From Candidatus Woesearchaeota archaeon (GTDB taxonomy: Archaea > Nanobdellota > Nanobdellia > Woesearchaeales > ARS49): DNA of 44,806 nucleotides. Location of the stretch: positions 1 to 44,806 of the forward strand of contig JAHWHT010000001.1 of assembly GCA_019323135.1 (NCBI GenBank). Reading direction: 5' to 3'. The first letter of the stretch is position 1. Every line of letters begins with the position of its first letter. The notes beneath the pieces are model-generated. The model worked only from the letters and a program-made list of their open reading frames with translations. It was not told where the DNA came from and did not search any database. The position numbers and the translations under genes were made by a program. Positions 3,962 through 37,577 of this stretch are shown here, piece after piece.

Positions 3962-5587
3962 ATGAAGAAACCAGGAATTATCAAGACTACACTTACCGGA
4001 CTATTACTGACAGCACTAGCAACACTATCAAGTTGTGTTGAGAAAGAAACAGAATATGTTGATGTACATCACTGGCAGACACCAGTAGCAGATATCGAAG
4101 CAATTTCTGATGACGGCGATTTTACTGCACTAGAAGTTCGGGAAAAAGATGACTGGGAAGTCTACGTATTCAACATGCAGACAGGAACAGCAACAAACAT
4201 ATCCAATGACCCAATAAACAGCGATAAAACTGTTGGTTTTGCAGGACATCATTTAATCACGCTTTCTGAAAACCCACAAGACATAGAAAATATTAAAATA
4301 TATGATGTAGAAACAGGTCTGCTTACATTTGAATCAGATGCGTATAGCTGGATAGGTCAAGAAATAATTCCGTATGGTGCAGGCACAAAAGTCTTGATGA
4401 ATCTAGACGACGGCACTGGCGCAAATATCTTTACCCACACACTCGGAGAAAATACTCTAGAAAAATTAATCACAGGTTCTGCTTACAGCTATATTGAGAA
4501 AGCCTCAGAAGACAAAAGCTTAATTTTTATTGAACATGACAGTCCAAGCGGACCTACCATGTCAATCTTTAGACCTGCGGATGGTTCAATAACGCCAGTT
4601 TTAAATCTTTCAAATCATGATGTGCGCCACATATCAAAAAACAATAAAACAGCAGTTATGGTAAATTGGAATTATCCAAACTCAGATCTAAAAACATTAG
4701 ACATTGATACAAACACAGTAAACTTAGTAAACCTGCCTACAGGAAAAAGATATGATTTTGTGTATGACATATCTGAAAATGGTGAAACTGCAATGGTTAT
4801 GCTGCAAGATACTGCGACAGACAATAGAGAATGGTACTGTCTTGACACTGCAACACAGACACTAGACTTTATAACAGATGCAGAAGTTGGAGCTGCAATC
4901 TATGACCCGCAATCAATTTCAGCAGACGGTACAATAACTGCTTTTAGAGATTGGAGCAGTCCGGAAATAAGGTTGTTCAATGCAGACACAGATGAATTTT
5001 ATGACCCATTTAACGCAATAACTCACACAGGCTCTAGTATACTCGGTTTTACCTCAGACGGCAAAGCAGTACTGGATTACAGCACAAATGTCGGATGGTA
5101 TGGAATAAGCAATCTTGTTTTACATGACCCTGCAACAAAGACAAACACGCCTATAGAAGACAGCAACTTTAGCAACAGATGGACTGCAGAAATGCTTCCG
5201 GGCAATCAGCACCTAGCAAGAGACGCAGAAGAGATAGCAACAGGCTGGGAAGTTGTGATTCTAGAAGACTTACTTAATGCAACTAAGAAAATCATACAAT
5301 TGCCAGGATTAGATGCGAACTATGTAGACCATTCCCCAGACGGCTCAACAGTATACATTGAAAGCAGAAGCAATATGCCTAATTTGTTTGCATATGACTT
5401 GGCTACTGAAGCAGTAACGCAGATAACCAATAACACAGATGAGTCTGTTAATGGCTTCAGGATAGAAAAGCATTCTGCAGATGGCCAGAGCTTGATATTC
5501 AGAGAATACAATTGGAATGGAACAGAAACATACAAACAATTGGACTTTGATACTGGCGACATAAAAATAGTTGCATACGAAGATTAA
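3962..5587 (+). CDS. Secreted lipoprotein with PD40/TolB-like beta-propeller repeats
   Basis: Signal peptide plus lipobox LSSC. Recurrent blade motifs: SDDGDFTA, SENGETAM, SADGTITA, TSDGKAVL, SPDGSTVY, SADGQSLI. Confidence 0.6.
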   Translation: MKKPGIIKTTLTGLLLTALATLSSCVEKETEYVDVHHWQTPVADIEAISDDGDFTALEVREKDDWEVYVFNMQTGTATNISNDPINSDKTVGFAGHHLITLSENPQDIENIKIYDVETGLLTFESDAYSWIGQEIIPYGAGTKVLMNLDDGTGANIFTHTLGENTLEKLITGSAYSYIEKASEDKSLIFIEHDSPSGPTMSIFRPADGSITPVLNLSNHDVRHISKNNKTAVMVNWNYPNSDLKTLDIDTNTVNLVNLPTGKRYDFVYDISENGETAMVMLQDTATDNREWYCLDTATQTLDFITDAEVGAAIYDPQSISADGTITAFRDWSSPEIRLFNADTDEFYDPFNAITHTGSSILGFTSDGKAVLDYSTNVGWYGISNLVLHDPATKTNTPIEDSNFSNRWTAEMLPGNQHLARDAEEIATGWEVVILEDLLNATKKIIQLPGLDANYVDHSPDGSTVYIESRSNMPNLFAYDLATEAVTQITNNTDESVNGFRIEKHSADGQSLIFREYNWNGTETYKQLDFDTGDIKIVAYED

Positions 5588-5639
5588 TTTTTTTTCTTCT
5601 TATTTTTGTCATTAATTTTAAAAAGAATCACCTATTAGA

Positions 5640-6065
5640 TTGGATTTTATGGGGATTGAGAAATTTGTGCCTCGCACAGAGGAATTAGAAAGTATTGAAG
5701 TAATTGAAGGAGTTATTGTGGCAGTTTATCCGCATAGCACTAATCCTGTTCTAGTGCAGCTTGATGGATACAACCATAAAAGCGAGATTCCTAAATATAG
5801 TTTTGCATGCTCAAGCGATGATCTTGATGAAGTCACTGGCGGAAGAAAAATAAAATATTACAGATGGACAACTAAAAAAGGATTGCATGGAGAGCTGATA
5901 GATCTTCTTCCAGAGCCAAAAAATACATTTGACTATGAAGATGGAGATACAGAAGTAGCGAAAGGGTTATATGCAAAAGACATACAAGAATTTAAAGAAG
6001 ATGCAGAATTAGAAAAATCTATTGATGAAGCAATAGACCAAATAGATGACTTAAAACAAGATTAA
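5640..6065 (+). CDS. Hypothetical acidic protein
   Basis: 141-aa ORF (TTG start; alternative ATG at 5649). No motif recognised. Acidic C-terminal tail. Confidence 0.45.
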   Translation: MDFMGIEKFVPRTEELESIEVIEGVIVAVYPHSTNPVLVQLDGYNHKSEIPKYSFACSSDDLDEVTGGRKIKYYRWTTKKGLHGELIDLLPEPKNTFDYEDGDTEVAKGLYAKDIQEFKEDAELEKSIDEAIDQIDDLKQD

Positions 6066-6961
6066 TACTCTTCTGCTTCCCAGAATCTTGCTTTTGTAAT
6101 CATTTCCCATTCTTTGACAACAATCTTCTGGATTTCGACAATTTGTTCTTCTGTTAAGTGCTTGAATCTGCCCTGCATCTTTAATGCGTCTCTGACAGGA
6201 GTCATCTGAGGTGTGTGGCTGATTGTGAATTTCTTTTTCTCAATTTCATAGAGAGGCCACATGCCTGATTCAACCATCATTTTTCCTGCTTTTAGTGTTT
6301 CATTAGGTTTTACCAACCAGCCTGGTTCGCAGGGAGCTAATAAATCAATAAAGACAGAACCTTCAACTTTAGCAGCCTTTCTTAATTTCTTGATAAAATC
6401 AAAAGGATATGAAACACAAGCAGTTGCACAGTACTCTGCACCACCCATTGCCATCATCTTTGCCATGTTTTTTCTTGGCAAAAGATTTCCTTTAGGGGGC
6501 GGAGTTGTTGTTGTGCGGGCATACTGTTCTGTAGCAGAAGAACACTGATGACCTGTGTTAGCAAACTGACAATTGTTATAGCAAATGTAAATTATTTTTT
6601 CATTACGGTGAATCATTCCACTCAAAGACTGCAGACCAATATCATAAGTAGCACCATCACCTGCATAGACAACAACATGAGTGTCTTTGTCTTTCTTAAG
6701 TGCTTTTAGACCCATTAATATTCCTGCAGAGACTGCACCGCCATTTTCAATAGCGCCGTGAACCCACGGGATTCTATAGGGGGTAAAAGGCCAGGTAGCT
6801 GTTAGAGTCATGCAGCCAGAAGAGTTAACCATTATGACATTCTTTCCAAGAGCAATGAGCATCAATCTAATACCAAGAATAGGATTACAGCCAGAGCAAG
6901 CAAAAGTCCCGCCAGTAATCAAATGAGGTTTTTTCATCTCTTCCTTAATATTAAAATCCAT
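6062..6961 (-). CDS. porB: 2-oxoacid (pyruvate/ketoisovalerate-type):ferredoxin oxidoreductase, beta subunit (TPP-binding)
   Basis: 299 aa. TPP motif GDGATYDIGLQSLSG and N-terminal Cys cluster CSGC. Last gene of the gamma-delta-alpha-beta order. Confidence 0.88.
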   Translation of the reverse strand: MDFNIKEEMKKPHLITGGTFACSGCNPILGIRLMLIALGKNVIMVNSSGCMTLTATWPFTPYRIPWVHGAIENGGAVSAGILMGLKALKKDKDTHVVVYAGDGATYDIGLQSLSGMIHRNEKIIYICYNNCQFANTGHQCSSATEQYARTTTTPPPKGNLLPRKNMAKMMAMGGAEYCATACVSYPFDFIKKLRKAAKVEGSVFIDLLAPCEPGWLVKPNETLKAGKMMVESGMWPLYEIEKKKFTISHTPQMTPVRDALKMQGRFKHLTEEQIVEIQKIVVKEWEMITKARFWEAEEY

Positions 6962-7037: not shown

Positions 7038-8177
7038 CTACATCTGCCATTTTCTATCATCTGCTTTAGTTTTCATAATATCATTTAAAATTTCAATATA
7101 ATCCTCTTCTGAAACAAAATTGCCACCAAGACCCTGAACATAATCTGAAATAATCTTTTTAGTTCCATAGAGAGCCATCTTAATCTCTGGATACAAAATG
7201 CCGCCCATTCCTGGACAGATATTCTGGTCAACAACTGCAATCTTATTTACTTTTTCAAGAGCTTTTCTTAACTGTGCTTCTGGGAAAGGCCTGAACAATC
7301 TAATTCTTAGCAATCCTACTTTTTTCCCTTTTTCTCTCATAGTATCAACAGCAGCTCTTGCAATAGTTGCATTAGCACCAATCATTACAATAACTGCGTC
7401 AGCATCTTTAACTTTGTATTCATCAAGAAAATCATATTTTCTTCCAGTGAGCTTGGCCCATTCTTTGTGAACTTTGTCAATAACAGTAAAAGAATCCAGC
7501 ATTGCAGTGTGCAGCTGCTGCCTATATCGCATGTAATCCAGACCCATTGCAGGAATACCTAGAGTCATCGGCTTTTTTACATCTAATCTAATCTCTAATT
7601 CAGGGTGAGGCAGAAACTTATCAACTAATTTCTGTTCAGGAATATCAACTTCAGTTCTTGTGTAGGAATGAACAAAACCATCCATGTTAACAATCACTGG
7701 CAAAAGAATTTTGGGATTTTCAGAAACTTTATAGCCCATTATCACGCTGTCTAAAACCTCTTGATTAGTCTCGCAGATAAACATAATCCAGCCAGCATCA
7801 CGCATAGCTAAAGTATCATTATGATCTGGCCATAAACCAATCGGGGCAGATATACACCTTGAGACTGTTGTCATGACCATCGGAGTTCTGCAGCCAGAGA
7901 TTATCGGAAGAATCTCATGCATTAATAATAATCCTTGTGAAGAAGTTGCTGTAAAAGTCCTTGCACCTGTCATAGAAGAGCCTAAACAAGCAGAGGCAGC
8001 ACTGTGTTCTGATTCAAGCACAACAAACTCTCCTTTGAATTCGCCTTTTGCATTCCATTCAGCAATAGTCTCGATTATTTCAGTAGTTGGAGTGATAGGG
8101 AAACAAGGGACACACTGCACTTTAGCTCTTCTAGCTCCCCAGGCAGCACACTTGTTTCCGTCAATAATATCAATCAT
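7038..8177 (-). CDS. porA: 2-oxoacid:ferredoxin oxidoreductase, alpha subunit
   Basis: 379 aa. N-terminus GNKCAAWGARRAKVQCVPCFPITPTTEI is typical of POR/VOR alpha subunits. Confidence 0.88.
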   Translation of the reverse strand: MIDIIDGNKCAAWGARRAKVQCVPCFPITPTTEIIETIAEWNAKGEFKGEFVVLESEHSAASACLGSSMTGARTFTATSSQGLLLMHEILPIISGCRTPMVMTTVSRCISAPIGLWPDHNDTLAMRDAGWIMFICETNQEVLDSVIMGYKVSENPKILLPVIVNMDGFVHSYTRTEVDIPEQKLVDKFLPHPELEIRLDVKKPMTLGIPAMGLDYMRYRQQLHTAMLDSFTVIDKVHKEWAKLTGRKYDFLDEYKVKDADAVIVMIGANATIARAAVDTMREKGKKVGLLRIRLFRPFPEAQLRKALEKVNKIAVVDQNICPGMGGILYPEIKMALYGTKKIISDYVQGLGGNFVSEEDYIEILNDIMKTKADDRKWQM

Positions 8178-28921: not shown

Positions 28922-29785
28922 ATGGCACGAAAGAAAAAAACAGGCATAATACATTATACTGGAACAGCAATCATATACACGAGCAAAGGAGTAATGTATT
29001 TCTTGAAAGGATTATACACTGTATTAGATGGTGTGGGATCTGCAATATTATTCACAAGCAAAAAAGTAAATGAAAAAAGAACAAAAATACAAAAAACTAA
29101 AAAAAAGACAAAAACAGCAATAAAAAAACCAAAAACAAAAGCAAAATATGCCGGACTGCAGGACGTAAAGCCAATAAAAGGAACAGCAAAAACATTTGAA
29201 AACTTTTTTCACAAATCAGAAAGCACAATCGGAATAATTCTCGGCGCAAGAGGAACAGGAAAAAGCGCAATAGGAATGAAACTATTAGAAAACATACATG
29301 CAAAAACAAAAAAACAAGTCTATGCAATCGGATTCAATGCAAAAGACATACCAAACTGGATAAATGCAGTTGAAAGCACAGAAGAAATAGAGAATGACTC
29401 AGTTGTATTGATTGACGAAAGCGGAATAAGCTTTAGCTCAAGAAAATCCATGTCAGATGCGAATCAAGTATTATCATCTTTACTTTTAGTTGCAAGACAC
29501 AAGAACTTAAGCATACTATTCATAACACAAAACAGCTCAAACCTAGAAGTCAATGTATTAAGACAAGCAGACTTCTTAGTAATGAAGCCTTCTTCTCTTA
29601 TGCAAAAAGACTTTGAAAGGAAAAAAATCAAACAAGTGTATGAATCTGTACAAAAGCATTTTGAAGAATTAAAAGAAACAACAGGACTCACATACATACA
29701 CTCCGACAAATACCAAGGATTTGCAACAAATGAACTGCCTTCATTCTGGACAACAAAAATAAGCAAAGCATTTAAAGAGAAATAA
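28922..29785 (+). CDS. Zot-like (zonular occludens toxin/phage pI-type) P-loop ATPase with N-terminal membrane segment
   Basis: 287 aa. Walker A GARGTGKS, Walker B VVLIDESG, and VARHKNLSILFITQN (RH...TQ block typical of the Zot family). Hydrophobic N-terminus followed by a Lys-rich linker. Confidence 0.55.
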   Translation: MARKKKTGIIHYTGTAIIYTSKGVMYFLKGLYTVLDGVGSAILFTSKKVNEKRTKIQKTKKKTKTAIKKPKTKAKYAGLQDVKPIKGTAKTFENFFHKSESTIGIILGARGTGKSAIGMKLLENIHAKTKKQVYAIGFNAKDIPNWINAVESTEEIENDSVVLIDESGISFSSRKSMSDANQVLSSLLLVARHKNLSILFITQNSSNLEVNVLRQADFLVMKPSSLMQKDFERKKIKQVYESVQKHFEELKETTGLTYIHSDKYQGFATNELPSFWTTKISKAFKEK

Positions 29786-29809: not shown

Positions 29810-29959
29810 GTGATAAACACAGAAGATGTCCAGAAAAACAAGAAACTTATTGATTACGAAGACTTAAGAGATATAGTGATTGCAAATGCAGTCAAGAAAA
29901 TGCGAGACAATAAAAAAATAAAAGAAAAAGAGCAGGATAGGCTCTTAGTTGAATTCTAA
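29810..29959 (+). CDS. Possible 49-aa charged protein
   Basis: GTG start 6 nt after AGAGGTG. VINTEDVQKNKKLIDYEDLRDIVIANAVKKMRDNKKIKEKEQDRLLVEF. Overlaps the convergent gene end by 15 nt. Confidence 0.25.
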   Translation: MINTEDVQKNKKLIDYEDLRDIVIANAVKKMRDNKKIKEKEQDRLLVEF

Positions 29960-30211
29960 TATTGCTGTACACTTATTCTTTTCACAAGAACAATGACCGC
30001 CGCAGTCTAGTGTTCCAGGAGCACAATTTAAAGTACATGCAACATTATTGCAATTAGGTGCCTGATCCCTTGATACGCAGCCAGTTGCGTGACAGCAAGC
30101 AGAGGGAACACAGTCCGCATCTGCATTGCAAAACCCCGATGCATAGGAGGGAGGTTTAACCACGCAACCAGTTACTGCCAGTAAAATAAAAAATAAAAAT
30201 ATTGTTTTCAT
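29945..30211 (-). CDS. Small Cys-rich lipoprotein (12 Cys after the lipobox)
   Basis: 88 aa. Lipobox VTGC, then 12 Cys in about 65 residues. 4-nt overlap with the upstream beta-propeller gene. Confidence 0.6.
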   Translation of the reverse strand: MKTIFLFFILLAVTGCVVKPPSYASGFCNADADCVPSACCHATGCVSRDQAPNCNNVACTLNCAPGTLDCGGHCSCEKNKCTAILEFN

Positions 30212-32193
30212 CTCATCATCACTACTTCATCTTCGTAGTATGGTCTGCCGTACTGATTTTCTTCGTAAGGAAGATCTAGTGCTTTCAGACGCTTTAGGCT
30301 GTCAAGATTATTCAGCTGCAGTCTCTTGTTTGAGAATGTGTACAAGATATCCTCAATGTAGAGTATCCGCTTTATTGAGCCAGAATCTCTTGAGAAATAA
30401 TGACCTGCTTTCTTGAAAACAGAATCATCGTCATAATGCGTTACCTTGCCTCGAAGATTAAAACCATCTTCTAGAGTAAGGTCATACACATAAGCGCCCT
30501 GGAAAACAAAGTCTCCCATCTGATTCTTTTCAGCACCTTCTGGAAGTTCTGCCACGATTATAGGAATCGCCAGCATATTCTTCTCCTTATCAAACAAGAA
30601 AGCCTTGTGATTTGTTGCAGCAATAGATTCTGTGCCTCTATCACCAATAACTTCCTTATACAGTTCAATAGGGTGTGCGACATCAGATACGTCAAACACT
30701 GCAAGCTTTACTCCTTGAATAGCTGTGAAGTAAACAGCGTTTTCTGTGTGAATCTTGTCTGCATCAATACTTGCATCAACTTCTTTACCAATACCAATCA
30801 CATGATTCTCGTCATATGGATGAAGGTATTCAGAGTAACCTGGAATTTTCAGCTTACCAAGAATCTCTGGTTCTCTTGGATTAGACAAGTCAACAACAAA
30901 CAGAGGATCAACATGCCTAAACGTAATTAAATATGCTCTGTCTCCCATAAATCTTACTGCGTAGATTGACTCGCCTGGAGCAATCTTTTCAATTTTGCCA
31001 ATTGTCTCTAAATCAGAATCTAAAACATAAATATTGTTTGTTGAGGTATCCTTGTTATTTGCATAGCCCTCTATGGTTGTAGCAATCCTGAAATTATTCT
31101 TGTGCTCGTCCATGGAGAACTGATTCAAAATCTTTCCAGGAACTTGGTCACTAGTGATAAAACGGATTTTGCCATTGTTTAGCGCAAACTTACTGATAGA
31201 GGTCTTTTGGTCTTTACCCCAAGTTGACTGTGCAATATACAAATTATCCTGAGATGAATAAATATTCTGTCCATTGCCTGCAATAACTTCTTTCTCAACA
31301 TCTGCATTTTCGTCTGTCATAGACATTGCAGCAACTGTGATGAAATTACTTGCGTGTAATGGTGGAATGTAACTAACATCTTCACATGCAACAATAGGTG
31401 CAAACTCTTTAGAATCCTCGCTGTATAATGGAGTTATGCATCCGCGAGGCTCTGGTCCAAAGTTAGGGTATGAATTAACCACAAAATAAACATCAGAACC
31501 AATCTTTCTAGATGAAACATAACTGCCTTCAATTTCAACAGTCCTAAGAACATCAGGATCTTTTTTGTCAGCAATAGTAAACAACTTAGCAGAAACCACG
31601 CCAACATGCCTTGGTCCTGGCCAGATATCTGGAGCAATCATCTTTGCTCCTGCTGCAGACATTGGTTCTGGATATGGTTTTATATTATCATGAGATGAAG
31701 AACCAAACATCAACAGCCTGTCTCCTTGAATGAATAATTCATTAGGATTAAAATCCTTGAATTCAGTAACAGAAATCAATTCTGCATCTTCAGCAGGGTA
31801 TGCTCTTGCAACATATAATTTATTGCCAGAGACAGCGTAGATATAATCACCATCTGTCTTGATTATGTCTGCTTCATCAACACCCTCTACCTGAATGTTT
31901 GTTTCTGAATAGTCTCTTTGAGCGCCAGAATCTGCCGTTGGTACTGCAGAGGTCTTTACCATTGCCTCAGCCACCATCATATCGCCACCAAACGTTCTCC
32001 ACATATTGCCTTGGCCGCTTTTCTGAGCCTCTTCAAAAGCATCAATTAATTTATCACAAGAATTAAACTTCTCTAACTTAGAACTGGTTGTAGGAAGAAT
32101 GTCGTCTGGCTTTACAGGCAGTTCATTACATGCTGCCAAAGCAACTAACAAAATTAACATTCCAACAATAATCATTGATTTTTTATTATTCAT
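30208..32193 (-). CDS. Secreted lipoprotein of the 'beta-propeller domain' family (PF09826-like)
   Basis: 661 aa. Lipobox LAAC. YSETNIQVEGVDEADIIKTDGDYIYAV is the characteristic N-terminal block of this family (recalled from memory, not searched). Confidence 0.65.
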   Translation of the reverse strand: MNNKKSMIIVGMLILLVALAACNELPVKPDDILPTTSSKLEKFNSCDKLIDAFEEAQKSGQGNMWRTFGGDMMVAEAMVKTSAVPTADSGAQRDYSETNIQVEGVDEADIIKTDGDYIYAVSGNKLYVARAYPAEDAELISVTEFKDFNPNELFIQGDRLLMFGSSSHDNIKPYPEPMSAAGAKMIAPDIWPGPRHVGVVSAKLFTIADKKDPDVLRTVEIEGSYVSSRKIGSDVYFVVNSYPNFGPEPRGCITPLYSEDSKEFAPIVACEDVSYIPPLHASNFITVAAMSMTDENADVEKEVIAGNGQNIYSSQDNLYIAQSTWGKDQKTSISKFALNNGKIRFITSDQVPGKILNQFSMDEHKNNFRIATTIEGYANNKDTSTNNIYVLDSDLETIGKIEKIAPGESIYAVRFMGDRAYLITFRHVDPLFVVDLSNPREPEILGKLKIPGYSEYLHPYDENHVIGIGKEVDASIDADKIHTENAVYFTAIQGVKLAVFDVSDVAHPIELYKEVIGDRGTESIAATNHKAFLFDKEKNMLAIPIIVAELPEGAEKNQMGDFVFQGAYVYDLTLEDGFNLRGKVTHYDDDSVFKKAGHYFSRDSGSIKRILYIEDILYTFSNKRLQLNNLDSLKRLKALDLPYEENQYGRPYYEDEVVMMR

Positions 32194-32250: not shown

Positions 32251-32913
32251 TTATTTTTTCTTAAGGGATTTGCCTAACTTGCTTCTTCTATAGAAGTAGA
32301 TTGCAAGTATGAATAAGATTACTGTTAATGCTACAAGGCCAATAAAAACATAGGGAAAAGGCTTTACTACCTCTGTAACTACTGGTGCCGCTTGATTGAT
32401 TGCTTCTGGAACTGCTCTTGCAGATGTTGGAACTATTTCTGCTTGAAGTGTTGTTGCTACTGCTTCTTCTGCAGAATCCATAGCAACTTGAACAGCTGCT
32501 TCTTGTGCTGCAAATGTTTCTGGCATTTTTGCAAACATAGCACCACCTTTTGCACCCATAACAATCGGAGCGCTATAATATTTTGCTGCACTGAATGCAG
32601 TACCTACTGCAGATAAAACAAAAAATCCAAGAACAATCCATAATCGTTTTCTTTCAGGATCAAGAACACATTTTGATTTTTCTGTGAGAGAATAATAAAT
32701 CCATTTACGTCCTTCTTCATGTCTTTTGACAAGACCTGCACTTGCTAATGCACTCAAGTGCTCTTTAATCGTCGGGACAGATACACCAAGCACAGCAGAA
32801 AGTTCAGACTGAGTGTGTCTTCTCTTGTCAAGAGTCTTGAGTATCTTAACTCTTGTTCCTGTTGCTAATGCTTTGAAAGTTTCTTGATCCAAAACAATCT
32901 TAGGTTCGTCCAT
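32251..32913 (-). CDS. Membrane-tethered ArsR/SmtB-like wHTH regulator
   Basis: 220 aa. wHTH TRVKILKTLDKRRHTQSELSAVLGVSVPTIKEHLSALASAGLVKR, then two TM helices flanking an Ala/Val-rich segment. Confidence 0.7.
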   Translation of the reverse strand: MDEPKIVLDQETFKALATGTRVKILKTLDKRRHTQSELSAVLGVSVPTIKEHLSALASAGLVKRHEEGRKWIYYSLTEKSKCVLDPERKRLWIVLGFFVLSAVGTAFSAAKYYSAPIVMGAKGGAMFAKMPETFAAQEAAVQVAMDSAEEAVATTLQAEIVPTSARAVPEAINQAAPVVTEVVKPFPYVFIGLVALTVILFILAIYFYRRSKLGKSLKKK

Positions 32914-33205
32914 AATAACTAAGAAACAGTTTTTGTTTATTAAATTTAGGTTTTATTAAGGTAAAAGACTAAAAAAAGGAGCGAACTAGAGGGAAAAACC
33001 TCGTAATTGCGAGAAGAAAACTCGACTTTGGCTGGTGGGAGAACAAGGCACGCCCTCTTGTCCGTGAAAAGAATTGATTATAATTTGCATGTTCCACCCC
33101 TTTTTAAATCAATAAATAAAGGTCTAGTATTTAAACATTGTTTCTCACTCCAGACTAAAAACGAAAAGTTTTTATATGCTCATTATAAAGGAATAGAGTA
33201 AAGAG

Positions 33206-33568
33206 GTGAATATATTGGAAAACCCAAAACAAATCATCGTTGTTCTAATGGGAATCGTTCTAGTAGTAGCGATCTCTGGATTCATAATAGGCATGAACAC
33301 ACAAGCCACTGGACAATTCACTTATGCCGGCGGCAGTAATGTAGCGTATTCTGGAGGGTTTATACAGTATAGCTATCCTCAAGAACCGTGTGAATACATA
33401 CCTTGTGCAAACAACAAACAAGCAATATTTATGCAGACAATAGGCGGAACAAGCCCATGGCAAACCCAAGCACAATCAGTACTGTGCTACTGCCCAGAAA
33501 ACCCACAAAAAGTTTTCACAGTTCCAATGGTACAACAAATACCATCACAAGGAGTATATATCAAATAA
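33206..33568 (+). CDS. Small secreted/anchored Cys-motif protein, paralog 1
   Basis: 120 aa (GTG start; TTG 33215 is an alternative). N-terminal TM. C-x4-C-x26-C-x-C-P-E. Confidence 0.6.
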   Translation: MNILENPKQIIVVLMGIVLVVAISGFIIGMNTQATGQFTYAGGSNVAYSGGFIQYSYPQEPCEYIPCANNKQAIFMQTIGGTSPWQTQAQSVLCYCPENPQKVFTVPMVQQIPSQGVYIK

Positions 33569-33582
33569 AAAAGGTGAAACAA

Positions 33583-33885
33583 ATGGAAACCAAACCAATA
33601 ATGGCACTATCTGTAATCGCTCTACTTGCAATTGCAGGACTAGTCTTATTCATAAATAGCGAAACAACAGGAATGATATCTGGACAACAGACAGCATATG
33701 GCTGGGTGTATGGACAATATCCTAGATTTGACCAAAATCCATGCGAAGCAGTGCTAACATGCCCTGACGGCGGAATCGCACTACCTGTAGCAATGACAAA
33801 ATACACAAACCAAGTTTACTGCCAGTGCCCAGAACATGCAGTCCCATATTACAAAGCACCTGCTTACGTAAAAATAAAAAACTAA
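33583..33885 (+). CDS. Small secreted/anchored Cys-motif protein, paralog 2
   Basis: 100 aa from METKPIM (AAGGTGA RBS upstream); the longer track ORF overlaps paralog 1. C-x5-C-x19-C-x-C-P-E. Confidence 0.65.
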   Translation: METKPIMALSVIALLAIAGLVLFINSETTGMISGQQTAYGWVYGQYPRFDQNPCEAVLTCPDGGIALPVAMTKYTNQVYCQCPEHAVPYYKAPAYVKIKN

Positions 33886-33886
33886 A

Positions 33887-34183
33887 ATGGAGACAAAAAA
33901 CGCAACAATAATTGTTTTATTAGTTATTGCAATTTTTGCAATAATCGGCCTAGTACTGTTCTTTAAAACAAGTTCTCAAGGCGCAGTAACATATCAGCAA
34001 TTAATCCATAGAGATAACGCAGTCTATCTAGATTATTACAATGTATGCTCAAGAGGTCCTTGCGGAGATCAAGCAACACAGATTGGTCATGTCCAACCAG
34101 GAGAACCAAACTTTCTTGGCAATGCATTATGCGAATGCCCAGATGGACGCAGATTCCAGATAGACTACCATAAACCATACTAA
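33887..34183 (+). CDS. Small secreted/anchored Cys-motif protein, paralog 3
   Basis: 98 aa. METKNATIIVLLV TM. C-x4-C-x22-C-x-C-P-D. Confidence 0.65.
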   Translation: METKNATIIVLLVIAIFAIIGLVLFFKTSSQGAVTYQQLIHRDNAVYLDYYNVCSRGPCGDQATQIGHVQPGEPNFLGNALCECPDGRRFQIDYHKPY

Positions 34184-34184
34184 A

Positions 34185-34469
34185 ATGGACAAAGAACAGA
34201 AAAGACTAGCATTAATTATTCTAGATGTTGTAGCGATACTTGCAATACTCAGTGTAGTGTTGATGGATGATTTATCCAGAGGATATGAAAAAAGCGAATT
34301 TCAGAAGCTAGTTACTGGTGGAACACAGTGGTCTGAGCAAGACGTGTGCGGAGCAGTAAAATGCGCTGGAACAATAAGAGCCAGATTCATAGGCCATGAC
34401 CAGAAAGGATATACATTATGCAAATGCCCAGATGGGGCTGCTTATTCTATAAACAAACTTACTGGATAG
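34185..34469 (+). CDS. Small secreted/anchored Cys-motif protein, paralog 4
   Basis: 94 aa. N-terminal TM. C-x4-C-x18-C-x-C-P-D. Confidence 0.6.
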   Translation: MDKEQKRLALIILDVVAILAILSVVLMDDLSRGYEKSEFQKLVTGGTQWSEQDVCGAVKCAGTIRARFIGHDQKGYTLCKCPDGAAYSINKLTG

Positions 34470-34606
34470 CAGTACTGCGCTACGTTACGCTGCTAAACTC
34501 GAGTGTTATCCAGATTTATCAGACCAGACATACCAAAACGAGAACTTCGCAGGCAGTACCGCCATTGCCCGAAACTGTTTTAAAGCAGTGGTGATTCTAA
34601 AAATTC

Positions 34607-35272
34607 ATGTTAACAGAACTGCCTGAAAAAGCAAAAGAAGTGCTGAAGAAAGAGAAAATCACAGAGCTAAGACCTGCGCAAGAAAAAGCAATTAAAGCAG
34701 GATTGTTTAAGGGAAAGAATCTTTTGATATGCACGCCAACTGCATCAGGAAAAACACTGATAGCAGAAATGGCAGCAGCAAAAAACATTCTTGAAGGCAA
34801 AGGGAAAACAATCTATATTGTTCCTTTGGTTGCATTAGCAACAGAGAAATACAAAGAGTTCAAGAGAAAATACGAACACTTGTTTAAAATCGCATTAAGT
34901 ATCGGAGATTATGACCGTTCTGAAACACAACTAATTGACGCAGACCTGATAATCTGCACTGCAGAGAAATTAGATAGTTTAATACGACATCATTCTCCTT
35001 GGCTAAAGTTTGTTAGCTTGGTTGTGGTTGATGAAATACATTTAATGAATGATGTTAGCAGAGGACCAACACTAGAAATAATAATCACAGTCTTGAAAAA
35101 AGTTCTTCCTAACATACAGATAATAGGATTATCTGCAACAATAGGTAATCCTGGTGAGTTAGCAGAGTGGCTTAATGCAGAACTAGTTCTTGATACATGG
35201 AGACCTGTTCCTTTGAAAAAAGGAGTTTATTTACAGGGAGAAGTTGAATTTGAAGAAAAGAAAAAAAATTAA
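34607..35272 (+). pseudogene. Hel308/Ski2-like helicase, first RecA domain only (truncated or split gene)
   Basis: 221 aa. Q-motif region RPAQ, Walker A CTPTASGKT, DEIH, SAT and WRPVPL, then a stop. No RecA2, winged-helix or ratchet domains follow. Confidence 0.6.
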
Positions 35273-36209: not shown

Positions 36210-37577
36210 CTAAAATAATGAAGCAAGAAGCTTTTCCTTGTCAAAAGGCTCTAAATCAGGATACTCCTGACCCATGCCCAAGTATAGAATAGGTTTTTTT
36301 GTAACATAAGAGACACTGATAGCCGCCCCTCCTTTCTCATCCACATCTGCTTTTGAGAGAATTATACCATTAATTCCAACAGCTTCATCAAACTTCTGTG
36401 CCTGCTCTGTACAGTCATTGCCTGTAATGCTCTCTCCAACAAAAATGATTAAGTCTGGCTTAGATACTCTTACAATCTTTTTCATCTCTTCAACCAGATT
36501 TTGGTCAGAGTGAAGTCTTCCAGCAGTATCAATCAAAACAACATCTTTCATCTTAGCTTCTGCATGCTTAACAGCATCAAAAGCTACAGCCGCAGCATCA
36601 GAACCATAATCATGCTTAATGAGTTTTACTCCTAGTTTATCTGCATGCAATTGCAATTGATCTATTGCCGCAGCTCGGAATGTATCTGCAGCAGCCATGA
36701 CCACAGATAAATTGTTCTGCAGAAACATGTGAGCAACTTTTGCTATTGAAGTTGTCTTTCCAGAACCATTGATTCCAACAAAACAAATAACCAATGGCTT
36801 TTTCTCTTTTGCTTTAGCAAGCAAATCAATCTGCTCAACATCAAACAATTCGCTGATAGAGTTTTTCAGAGAATTAATGACAACTTCTTCTACTTTTCCT
36901 CTAGGAACAGGATTTTCTGTAAGTTCTTTCTTTAAATCTGCTTTTATTTTCTCAATAACCTCAACAGCGACGTTATTTTCAAGCATAGCAAGCTCTAAAT
37001 CCCAGAACAATTCTTCAAACTGAGATTCAGAAACCTTTTTAGTGGTAATTTTTTCAGTGATAAATGAAAAGAAGCCTTTTTTCTTTGGTTTTTCCTCAAC
37101 CTTTGGCTTTTCTTTTACTTCTGGTTTTGGTTCTGGCTTTTTTTCAGCTTTAGGTTTTGAAATTTCTTTTGGTTTTTCTTCAACTTTAACTTCTTTCTTT
37201 TCCTCAACCTTTGGTTCTTCGATAAGTTCAGGAATCTCTTCTTCGATTTCTTCTTTAACTTCCTCAACTTTTGGTTCTTTTTTGATTTCAGGAACAGGTT
37301 CTTTTACTTCTTCAACTTTTTCTTCCTTTACTTTTTCTTCCTTTACTTTTTCTTCCTTTACTTTTTCTACTTTCTCTTTTTTTACTTCTTCAACCTTTTC
37401 TTCGACAACTTCTTCTTTAACTTCTTCAACTTTAGGGGTTTCTTTGACTTCTTCGACTTTAGGCTCTTCAACTACTTCTTTCTTGACTTCGACTACTTCT
37501 TCAGGAGCCTCTTCTTCAACCTTCTTGGTAAATTTATCAAGAGCGCCTTTTATCTTCTTTTTAAGAAAGCCAAACAT
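36210..37577 (-). CDS. ftsY: Signal recognition particle receptor FtsY with long Glu/Lys/Val-rich repetitive N-terminal domain
   Basis: 455 aa. GINGSGKTT, DTAGR and SKADVD GTPase motifs. The N-terminal ~170 aa are EEVKE/KVEE repeats. Confidence 0.9.
   Translation of the reverse strand: MFGFLKKKIKGALDKFTKKVEEEAPEEVVEVKKEVVEEPKVEEVKETPKVEEVKEEVVEEKVEEVKKEKVEKVKEEKVKEEKVKEEKVEEVKEPVPEIKKEPKVEEVKEEIEEEIPELIEEPKVEEKKEVKVEEKPKEISKPKAEKKPEPKPEVKEKPKVEEKPKKKGFFSFITEKITTKKVSESQFEELFWDLELAMLENNVAVEVIEKIKADLKKELTENPVPRGKVEEVVINSLKNSISELFDVEQIDLLAKAKEKKPLVICFVGINGSGKTTSIAKVAHMFLQNNLSVVMAAADTFRAAAIDQLQLHADKLGVKLIKHDYGSDAAAVAFDAVKHAEAKMKDVVLIDTAGRLHSDQNLVEEMKKIVRVSKPDLIIFVGESITGNDCTEQAQKFDEAVGINGIILSKADVDEKGGAAISVSYVTKKPILYLGMGQEYPDLEPFDKEKLLASLF

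Follow-up and report, generated by a model that had tools for sequence, protein, structure and literature searches.

What do the four small genes lying head to tail between positions 33,215 and 34,469 of contig JAHWHT010000001.1, from a Candidatus Woesearchaeota archaeon (assembly GCA_019323135.1), encode, and does the strong divergence of their products mark them as diversifying effectors or as distinct parts of one structure? The whole stretch analyzed here, 44,806 nucleotides long and hereafter called the window, is archaeal, with a 16S-tRNA(Ala)-23S operon that matches archaeal rRNA models and about 36% G+C. The four proteins, P1 to P4, each combine an N-terminal hydrophobic helix with four conserved cysteines; they form a real and undescribed family, and their four types are ancient and individually conserved rather than copies in the course of diversification. 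As to function, anatomy and conservation lead us to propose, with a probability of about 0.4, that they are subunits of a membrane-anchored extracytoplasmic complex, which would be controlled by a tethered winged helix-turn-helix (wHTH) protein and would have a novel structured small RNA (sRNA) alongside in one subclade. The genes of the cassette are the following.

33215-33568, plus strand: P1-type four-Cys protein, 117 amino acids from a TTG start (a GTG at 33206, giving 120 amino acids, stands in the program-made list of open reading frames); helix at residues 7-25, motif TGQFTYAGG..IQYSYP, then C59/C64/C91/C93-P94.
33583-33885, plus strand: P2-type four-Cys protein, 100 amino acids, of the ETTGMISGQQ type, with its own AGGTGA Shine-Dalgarno sequence; orthologues P0004 and P0007.
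33887-34183, plus strand: P3-type four-Cys protein, 98 amino acids, of the VTYQQLIHRD type; orthologues P0003, P0006, P0008, P0015, P0016 and P0020.
34185-34469, plus strand: P4-type four-Cys protein, 94 amino acids, with a conserved transmembrane (TM) helix; always the last gene of the cassette.

These open reading frames lie where an initial annotation of this DNA had placed them, with spacers of 14, 1 and 1 nt (P1-P2, P2-P3 and P3-P4) as read from the coordinates and the sequence. The sizes of 94-120 amino acids given there hold for P2 to P4, whereas P1 most likely starts at TTG 33215 and not at GTG 33206, because a GAGGTGA Shine-Dalgarno sequence is found 5 nt upstream of the former and because a TTG or ATG occupies the equivalent codon in all orthologous loci. 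Overlapping or 1-nt junctions between cassette genes also occur in loci L001 and L002, and such junctions imply translational coupling. The four genes are bona fide, translationally coupled and part of one operon, which is conserved in Woesearchaeota-type DPANN archaea. The named relatives of the locus are "Candidatus Woesearchaeota" metagenome-assembled genomes (MAGs), to which are added two MAGs labelled Methanosarcinales and one labelled Aenigmarchaeota. In the two MAGs labelled 'uncultured Methanosarcinales archaeon' (L007, CAZXEZ010000080.1, and L011/L035, CAYGYR01...), the organisation of the locus and the RNA are near-identical to those of the Woesearchaeota MAGs, and their label is probably due to mislabelling or mis-binning.

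All four proteins contain a 19-residue hydrophobic segment within residues ~6-26, with Kyte-Doolittle means of 2.95-3.49, and all carry the signature C-x4/5-C ... C-x-C-P-[DE]. Outside of this signature they have diverged strongly, as had been noticed initially: P1 shares 23-28% identity with P2, P3 and P4, and the columns that are invariant across P1-P4 are the four Cys, the Pro, M1, E2, A19, I20 and A70, with no others. A word-indexed search with a profile of the four paralogues matched 26 proteins, and an exhaustive HMMER search of 1.84 billion representatives gave 78 matches at E<=1e-3; the family comprises ~86 clusters at 50% identity, all of ~90-130 amino acids and of the same architecture. 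The four Cys and the Pro are invariant among 30 homologues. In the 98 collected sequences (median length of 100 amino acids, two artefacts removed), the N-terminal hydrophobic segment is universal (98/98), the four-Cys pattern is kept in 86 and the Pro after C-x-C in 73, so that the signal-anchor helix and the Cys pattern ascribed to each paralogue prove to be conserved in the homologues as well.

The initial reader did not recognise the family, and neither do the databases. P1-P4 have no match in Pfam, NCBIfam, PHROGs or PADLOC, the 30-sequence profile of the family has none among PDB sequences, and a Foldseek search of the PDB with AlphaFold2 (AF2) models of P1 and P4 returned nothing below E=0.27 and no pilin. 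The weak neighbours in this search were SH3-/Tudor-like barrels (Cren7, eIF5A N-domain and Tudor, E 0.3-3), which are not significant. All named members of the family are annotated "hypothetical protein". Two large proteins were rejected as spurious members: P0027 (997 amino acids, 11 matching repeats) is a low-complexity tandem repeat without C-x-C-P, and P0029 (6897 amino acids) matches in the hydrophobic segment only. More divergent members, some of 160-200 amino acids, are encoded outside the main cassette in L001 (3274-3594 and 3633-4217, minus strand) and L004 (725-991 and 1043-1651, minus strand), with further outlying ones in L008 (2385-2705) and L017 (82-660); L035 holds at 5162-6273 a second three-gene cluster of the family, in the same genome as L011. 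No additional member was found elsewhere in the window.

The question of diversification is answered by orthology and selection. The 26 close homologues fall cleanly into four groups, one per gene of the window. With 30+ loci mapped, 1:1 orthologues of each paralogue are present in fixed order in more than 20, and the order of the genes is identical in every locus with enough flank. Most cassettes have four genes, those of L006, L024, L032, L033 and L036 have five, that of L034 six and those of L010 and L011 eight; the larger cassettes keep the first and the last three types, and those genes that L010 has in addition lie after its P1 type and before P2-P3-P4. The ratio of nonsynonymous to synonymous substitution rates (dN/dS), estimated by the Nei-Gojobori method between the window and five related loci, is 0.075-0.29 for P1-P4, 0.08-0.18 for the regulator and 0.04-0.08 for the downstream helicase-domain gene (DEADN), with dS values of 0.56-1.1 in the closest pair and close to saturation in all others. 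P1-P4 thus evolve faster than the neighbouring genes, yet under clear purifying selection. Taken together, 1:1 orthology in fixed order and low dN/dS imply that the divergence of the paralogues reflects ancient subfunctionalisation, as expected of distinct subunits. The initial annotation had regarded the four genes as diversifying paralogues of the kind typical of host-interaction or toxin/bacteriocin-like modules; this view is supported neither by the orthology nor by the dN/dS values, which are those of purifying selection.

As regards topology, the C-terminal domains of P1-P3 contain 6.5-18% of charged residues (KRDE) and 49-60% of S/T/Q/N/Y/G/P, compared with 22-40% charged residues in the cytoplasmic proteins of the window; pooled over the family, these domains have 18.8% KRDE and 46% STQNYGP. 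The family-wide net charge is +0.76 for the flank N-terminal to the helix versus -0.01 for the C-terminal flank. Low-charge domains and a more positive N-flank favour an N-in/C-out orientation with the Cys domain outside the cell, and an exported location of the Cys domains is plausible on the basis of composition and flank charge. A [TSQ]G dipeptide, present at most 14 residues after the helix in 56 of 86 members, may be the mark of a cleavage site.

The AF2 model of P1 (predicted local distance difference test, pLDDT, of 75) consists of a helix at residues 4-30 and a small beta domain with a pLDDT of 84-94, in which the Cys residues are placed on a turn and a strand. That of P4 (pLDDT 68) has a continuous helix of 41 residues at positions 3-43, and in both models the helix is joined to the small sheet via a low-confidence linker. 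The TM helix of P4 is the most conserved part of this protein, with the pattern L..IILD.VAI.AIL...L..D that includes an invariant intramembrane Asp; the invariant residues are L8, I11, I12, L13, D14, V16, A17, I18, A20, I21, L22, L26 and D29, and a conserved helical juxtamembrane segment, DDLSRGYEKSEFQKL, follows the helix. Such conservation of a TM helix is the hallmark of a specific intramembrane contact.

Upstream of the cassette and divergent from it lies the gene of a putative regulator, REG, across an intergenic region of 292-301 nt that holds a conserved structured RNA and three promoters. The regulator, its promoter and that of the cassette are as follows.

32251-32913, minus strand: REG, a membrane-tethered ArsR-type wHTH protein of 220 amino acids; predicted wHTH domain at residues ~10-85, TM1 at ~91-113, Ala/Val-rich loop at ~114-185 (~70 amino acids, extracytoplasmic), TM2 at ~186-208, and a basic C-terminal tail.
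32944 to 32936, minus strand: putative TATA box of the REG promoter, TTTAATAAA, 22 nt from the ATG, read from the sequence.
33162-33209, plus strand: predicted promoter B and cassette leader, with a B recognition element (BRE) CGAAAAG at 33162-33168, a TATA box TTTTTATA at 33169-33176 and the Shine-Dalgarno sequence GAGGTGA at 33203-33209.

The description of REG as an ArsR-like wHTH protein with two TM helices and an Ala/Val-rich segment between them was correct. REG scores above cut-off with Pfam HTH_5/ArsR (45.0 bits, cut-off 22) and with NCBIfam HTH_metalloreg NF033788 (61.7 bits, cut-off 55); it stays under the cut-off of the NCBIfam SdpR subfamily (49.7 bits versus 100), and no NCBIfam equivalog model reaches its cut-off. 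TM1 comes directly after the wing, and no domain such as HAMP is detected in the interval from residue 85 to residue 91. On inspection, the sequence of REG lacks both the alpha3/alpha3N Cys motif and the alpha5 Asp/His/Glu site through which ArsR/SmtB sensors bind metal: the recognition-helix region (HTQSELSAVLGVSVPTIKEHL) is devoid of Cys, a single Cys is located after the wing, and a TM helix takes the place of alpha5. In most loci, among them the distant L006, L032 and L034, an orthologue of REG with 50-80% identity is encoded divergently beside the cassette.

The REG mRNA is probably leaderless, because its TATA box is 22 nt from the ATG. The TATA box of promoter B is overlapped by the inverted repeats TAAAAAC-N5-GTTTTTA and TTTATA-N7-TATAAA. 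The promoter B block is invariant within the lineage of the window, and its BRE/TATA core (CGAAAGGTTTWTATA) is kept in divergent lineages with a different palindrome, TATACT-N3-AGTATA; the inverted repeats and this palindrome are candidate operators. A conserved motif that resembles a direct repeat, TTAGGnTTTnnTWRAGG, lies between the sRNA 3' end and the REG TATA box (32948-32962, plus strand, and equivalent positions); its halves, TTAGG ... TAAGG, are about one helical turn apart, and a role in autoregulation or as the context of a terminator is possible.

The spacer had been taken for a 290-nt intergenic region. It is there, at nearly this length, but it is not empty: it encodes a structured RNA and is the most conserved DNA of the locus. 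The predicted features of this RNA are listed below.

32971-33105, minus strand: predicted structured sRNA of ~135 nt, running from ~33105 to ~32971 with approximate, predicted ends; 5' end AAAAAGGGGUGG.
33064 to 33053 paired with 32993 to 32982, minus strand: RNA helix P1, 11-12 bp, followed in the window by a U7 tract.
Within the sRNA, minus strand: RNA helix P2, 7 bp, GCCUUGU / ACGAGGU (ACRRGGU across loci).
Within the sRNA, minus strand: invariant, CU-rich internal loop of 18 nt, UCUCCCACCAGCCAAAGU.
Within the sRNA, minus strand: RNA hairpin P3, CGAG/CUCG; it contains a conserved UUCUU and, depending on the lineage, extra stems (such as GAC/GUC and GAUAC/GUAUC; a replaced helix in L032).
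33128-33148, minus strand: putative promoter A of the sRNA, with a TATA box TTTAAATA at 33135 to 33128 preceded by an A-rich BRE, GAAACAATG.

In aligned related loci the spacer is more conserved than the surrounding coding DNA, and 60-70 nt at a time are shared without a difference by loci in which synonymous sites are saturated and P1 is ~55% identical at the protein level. The RNA element is found in 20 loci overall, once per locus and always directly beside a cassette, including the 5- and 8-gene versions; an exact 20-mer of the RNA block is found a single time in each of 8 GTDB species genomes. Metagenome contigs that cover the spacer added no informative variants; among sequencing runs, the locus was found as DNA in X1-X4 and in no RNA run. 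An open reading frame for 64 amino acids at 33007-33201 was rejected as a gene, since orthologous loci have indels of 1-16 nt there, mostly not multiples of three, and such frame-breaking changes rule out a coding function of the spacer.

The strand is indicated by several lines of evidence. The minus strand folds more stably in 15/15 distinct sequences and with a common architecture (summed minimum free energy, MFE, of -515.7 vs -458.0 kcal/mol), and standard pairs fill 98.5% of its 336 pair cells versus 85.4% for the best plus-strand structure, whose A·C and C·A mismatches turn into G·U pairs on the minus strand. RNA helix P2 is found on the minus strand only, where four of its seven pairs vary between U-A and U·G and none is broken, three pairs of RNA helix P1 display compensatory double changes, and RNAalifold recovers the same three helices independently. 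Fold stability, mismatch pattern, helix P2 and RNAalifold therefore place the RNA on the minus strand; a plus-strand three-way junction, then a model of helix P1 plus a hairpin, were dropped on mismatch pattern, MFE and promoter geometry. In 15/15 distinct loci the invariant A(n)GGGGUGG start is preceded, at a distance of 20-23 nt, by a consensus archaeal TATA box (TTTAWATA / TTTATAAR) with an A-rich BRE before it; the intervening sequence differs between lineages, and promoters A and B are arranged back to back, ~40 bp apart.

No known RNA family accounts for this element. In the intergenic region no Rfam 15 model reached its gathering threshold, and up to E<=10 the matches were at chance level, the best having 19 bits against a gathering score of 80. 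Signal recognition particle (SRP) RNA, 4.5S-like, RNase P, 5S, H/ACA, C/D and tRNA-like identities were discarded for want of Rfam support or of their defining boxes; by inspection, there is no ACA box after RNA helix P1 and there are no C/D boxes. A pseudoknot between the 5' GGGGUGG and a loop CCCACC amounts to only 5 bp and is not kept in L003. The RNA was not found in L033 by the covariance model with filters off, and the spacer between regulator and cassette in L034 (~104 nt) is too short to hold it, which restricts the RNA to one subclade.

Two unpaired CU-rich motifs of the RNA, UCUCCC and UUCUU, suggest pairing with purine-rich, Shine-Dalgarno-like sequences. In this respect the RNA resembles the staphylococcal RsaE/RoxS class of sRNAs, with its unpaired CU/C-rich motifs able to pair with G-rich ribosome-binding sites, and the location of its gene, beside a transcription-factor gene and divergent from the regulated operon, recalls the OxyS-oxyR and GcvB-gcvA pairs. 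RsaE/RoxS, OxyS and GcvB are all bacterial and have no homology to this RNA, which would fold into a long rod with an asymmetric, invariant internal loop of 18 nt and matches the ribosome-binding sites of its own neighbours poorly. RNAduplex comparison with 49 translation-initiation regions of the window gave no preference for the cassette; the best matches were unrelated genes with Shine-Dalgarno sequences of the GGGAGA type, a result too noisy to single out targets.

From these elements the following working model can be drawn. The N-terminal hydrophobic helix would insert each protein N-in/C-out and expose outside a beta-rich, low-charge mini-domain of 60-90 amino acids, which the four invariant Cys would clamp, most likely by two disulfides, the C-x4-5-C pair lying in a short turn and the C-x-C-P pair in a beta strand. 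P1-P4 would be the subunits of one hetero-oligomeric, membrane-anchored complex of the envelope or surface, a reading suggested by the constant co-production of the four types from genes in fixed order, with overlapping or 1-nt-spaced stop and start codons. P4, with its intramembrane Asp and juxtamembrane helix, would be the membrane base of the complex; P1-P3 and the extra paralogues of the 5-8-gene cassettes, with a 'TG' motif after the helix and possibly cleaved, would be its distal parts. Transcription of the cassette would start at the BRE/TATA promoter overlapped by inverted repeats, with the divergent REG as its likely regulator in most lineages, whose external loop of ~70 amino acids could report envelope status. 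In one subclade, the ~135-nt sRNA would be transcribed back to back with the cassette promoter; its regulation is probably shared with the cassette, and purine-rich, Shine-Dalgarno-like sequences may be its targets in trans.

Several points weigh against this model. The N-flanks carry just ~1 net positive charge, so that the topology call is not strong, and cleavage by signal peptidase I is uncertain because the residue at -3 before 'TG' is often not small. The organisms are those of anaerobic sediments, where extracellular disulfides are not guaranteed, and a Cys4 metal site in their stead keeps a part of the probability, as discussed below. No regulator stands beside the cassette in L010, L024, L033 and L036; REG is therefore an accessory regulator and not an obligate component, and its initial inclusion in the system is justified by its conserved divergent position in most loci and fails in these four, where it is dispensable. 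Neither the regulator nor the sRNA is essential to the cassette. Pairing of the sRNA loop with the cassette initiation regions reaches -4 to -8 kcal/mol, among the weakest values in the window. Finally, the neighbourhood (ScpA, prefoldin, FtsY, MamF-like and DEADN) is syntenic across these genomes, including the divergent loci, which makes adjacency weak evidence of functional linkage.

Among the alternatives, the one that survives best, although we deem it unlikely, is that the cysteines form a Cys4 metal site (Zn, Fe or Cu) or redox dithiols and that the cassette is an envelope module for metal handling or for thiol-redox and oxidative stress. The invariant Cys4 and Pro recall the Cys-Pro ends of ferredoxin and rubredoxin motifs, the adjacent REG is in the ArsR/SmtB family of metalloregulators, and rubrerythrin, a SIMPL/YggE-type protein and DoxX/MauE in L034 are recurrent neighbours. 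However, REG is without the metal-binding motifs of this family (no alpha3 Cys, no alpha5 site), the neighbours belong to a broad synteny block, and the spacing C-x4-5-C / C-x-C is not a known knuckle geometry and has no Zn-ribbon or rubredoxin match in Pfam, NCBIfam, PDB sequences or Foldseek. Furthermore, the low-charge, Tyr/Gln/Thr-rich domains resemble structural exoproteins, and four to eight paralogues would be unneeded for simple metal binding.

The closest functional analogy that can be named for the cassette would be with minor-pilin and pseudopilin operons (GspH-I-J-K, FimU-PilV-W-X and the archaeal EpdA-C), which likewise encode tandem, co-translated small proteins in fixed order. 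Minor pilins, like the four-Cys proteins, have an N-terminal hydrophobic helix and a small beta head, often stabilised by disulfides, and include one member with an acidic residue in the helix. The architecture found here, in tandems of 4-8 genes of fixed order, resembles the GspH-K or FimU-PilVWX minor-pilin operons. Could the proteins then be divergent subunits of type-IV-pilin kind, with an assembly helix, a beta head, the P4 acid in the role of Glu5 and a short fibre as the product? P4 does read [KR]-L-[AS] followed by [FLMY]-I-I-L-D, which puts the Asp at +5 if cleavage occurs after the Ala/Ser, and its AF2 model is the continuous 41-residue helix described above. We nevertheless consider this reading decidedly unlikely: the class III motif (FlaFind-type [KRDE][GA][ALIFQMVED][ILMVTAS]x3) is present in 5/86 members and 0/4 window proteins, Pfam models of the class III signal peptide and of pilins give no match and Foldseek gives no pilin, and the called genes within 6-8 kb in 9 loci, like those of the 7 kb upstream of the cassette in the window, include neither a prepilin peptidase nor a PilB/ArlI ATPase or a PilC/ArlJ platform protein. 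In the AF2 models the helix leads into a low-confidence linker and does not appear to pack on the sheet.

The regulator has been a further reason to think of pili, since Sulfolobus offers a precedent for a membrane-tethered HTH protein encoded divergently from pilin or archaellin genes: there, the membrane-bound HTH proteins ArnR and ArnR1, with two TM helices, are activators of archaellum and pilus promoters (PMC6396743). ArnR, for which a membrane-proximal stimulus of its control over surface-structure promoters has been proposed (PMC6396743), shares with REG an N-terminal HTH tethered by two TM helices and a place beside surface-structure genes or, for REG, putative ones. This analogy is architectural only: REG is of the ArsR/HTH_5 type, with 220 amino acids and no HAMP or sensor domain, its TM helices flank the Ala/Val-rich loop of ~70 amino acids while those of ArnR are together at the C-terminus, and the genes beside REG, unlike the targets of ArnR, do not encode pilins or archaellins.

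A different alternative concerns the intergenic element, which might be a cis-acting leader on the plus strand (a riboswitch-like aptamer with an oligo-U terminator) or an array of DNA operators. The element is always upstream of the cassette and on its strand, an invariant CCACCCC-T5-7 run, typical of an archaeal terminator signal, always comes after it, and a closing stem of 12 bp is formed on the plus strand as well, compensatory changes included. A leader is rendered quite improbable by the strand comparison given above (paired cells, stability and helix P2), by the fixed-distance BRE/TATA, which points to minus-strand initiation at this very 'terminator' sequence, and by the cassette's own BRE/TATA located downstream. 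A pure operator is hard to reconcile with an element that persists without the regulator in L010 and L024 and tolerates hairpin insertions.

The gene that follows the cassette bears on another alternative.

34607-35272, plus strand: DEADN, 221 amino acids, corresponding to only the N-terminal third of a Hel308/Hjm-type helicase, its first RecA-like domain.

DEADN matches Pfam DEAD (2.5e-34) and PHROG 6819, 'Holliday junction branch migration helicase', over positions 8-218 of 645 (1.8e-63). Hel308/Hjm helicases have two RecA-like domains plus winged-helix, ratchet and helix-hairpin-helix (HhH) domains, for a total of ~650-750 amino acids; Pfam found only DEAD/ResIII in DEADN and no Helicase_C, so that it departs from the full Hel308 layout. 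Its length is 214-221 amino acids in all loci, where it is encoded on the same strand, downstream of the cassette and usually 12-25 nt after P4; it occupies this position in L001-L004, L006-L013, L033, L034 and L036. Cassette and DEADN are separated by a PIN toxin pair in L036 and by ~3 kb in L024, and the L035 cassette has no DEADN. A split helicase was rejected, the open reading frame after DEADN in L003 being an unrelated lipoprotein, and no Helicase_C partner was seen near DEADN.

The spacer from P4 to DEADN is 137 nt in the window (34470-34606), as in L014 and L016, 151 nt in L017 and 12-25 nt in other loci; in the window its length is due to a small insertion. This insertion of ~100 nt after P4 has imperfect inverted ends (CAGTACTGCG ... 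CGCAGGCAGTAC) and carries the P4 stop codon. It displaced the ancestral C-terminal tail of P4, which in other orthologues ends in GSPETVLNQD; a relic of this tail, CCCGAAACTGTTTTAAA, survives in another reading frame, and its DNA sequence is conserved. In L036, from the Aenigmarchaeota-labelled MAG, the gene of a PIN-domain toxin and a small upstream open reading frame (7272-7896, minus strand) stand between cassette and DEADN and form a probable toxin-antitoxin pair.

The position of DEADN, the short and weakly positive N-flanks and the SH3-/Tudor-like, nucleic-acid-binding folds among the weak Foldseek neighbours (E 0.3-3) would together suit an inverted, N-out/C-in topology, in which cytoplasmic, membrane-tethered, zinc-binding Cys4 modules work with the co-transcribed protein that contains the Hel308 N-terminal domain and/or with the sRNA in a membrane-associated complex handling nucleic acids. 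This is very unlikely, as the composition of the domains differs from that of the cytoplasmic proteins of this genome, the Foldseek matches are not significant, the cassette and DEADN are split in L036 and L024 with no DEADN at L035, and the sRNA occurs in one subclade only.

Least probable of all is the view of the four proteins as diversifying secreted effectors (toxins, bacteriocins or host-interaction proteins) sensed by a membrane-linked ArsR-type regulator as in sdpABC/sdpRI, for although the proteins are small, apparently exported, Cys-stabilised and as paralogues 23-28% identical, although REG gives 49.7 bits with the SdpR model (below its cut-off of 100) and although surface effectors are plausible in episymbionts such as DPANN archaea, the view is opposed by the 1:1 orthologues in fixed order with dN/dS of 0.075-0.29 and no sign of gene-level positive selection, by the lack of immunity-like, processing or export partner genes nearby, by P4 being integral to the membrane and better conserved in its TM helix than in its ectodomain, by the absence of a match in PADLOC or PHROGs and of the RNA 20-mer and the P4 profile from IMG/VR, and by the location of the locus within housekeeping synteny. 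The B. subtilis sdpABC/sdpRI system does share with this locus a membrane-coupled ArsR-family regulator beside genes for small exported Cys proteins. There, however, SdpR is soluble and sequestered by SdpI, whereas REG itself is membrane-integral; no homologues of SdpA, SdpB or SdpI are present here, and the cassette genes evolve under purifying selection, each of the four types having kept its own orthologues.

Upstream of REG, the window also encodes the following two proteins, and the genes further upstream of the cassette are housekeeping genes.

29945-30211, minus strand: small Cys-rich lipobox protein, 88 amino acids with 14 Cys.
30208-32193, minus strand: lipobox Beta_propel (PF09826) protein, 661 amino acids; overlaps the gene of the 88-amino-acid protein by 4 nt.

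The 14-Cys lipoprotein is encoded near the cassette in most loci, with 66-77% identity, and in many of these a SIMPL protein takes the place of the propeller. At 28922-29785 (plus strand), a P-loop NTPase of 287 amino acids matches Pfam Zot (zonular occludens toxin, phage pI-like) with 24.9 bits versus a cut-off of 20.3 and is syntenic in L001 and L002. FtsY (36210-37577, minus strand) has a repetitive, Lys/Glu/Val/Pro-rich N-terminal extension of ~190 residues, its total length varying between loci from 391 to 599 amino acids.

DPANN archaea such as Woesearchaeota are abundant, uncultivated and dependent on cell-cell contact, and most of their surface proteins are unannotated. Returning to the membrane-anchored complex that we favour, its widest interpretation would be a DPANN-specific envelope module made of 4-8 disulfide-knotted subunits on a membrane base, with a membrane-tethered wHTH sensor in control of it and a new class of archaeal regulatory RNA that couples envelope status to the translation of other genes. 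We put this interpretation forward as speculative and, in its entirety, rather unlikely; within it, the surface structure would possibly be part of the apparatus by which the episymbionts contact their hosts. The four-Cys family of ~86 clusters has a simple diagnostic signature and a fixed multi-subunit order, which make it trackable in genomes and targetable by proteomics or cryo-electron tomography (cryo-ET). The core of the structured RNA is invariant across lineages with saturated synonymous sites and has no Rfam counterpart, and to our knowledge few regulatory RNAs are known in DPANN archaea; if it is true that this RNA acts on ribosome-binding sites, it would be a convenient case for the study of sRNA control in archaea with reduced genomes. 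More generally, the locus corrects a tempting misreading: strongly divergent tandem paralogues need not be diversifying effectors.

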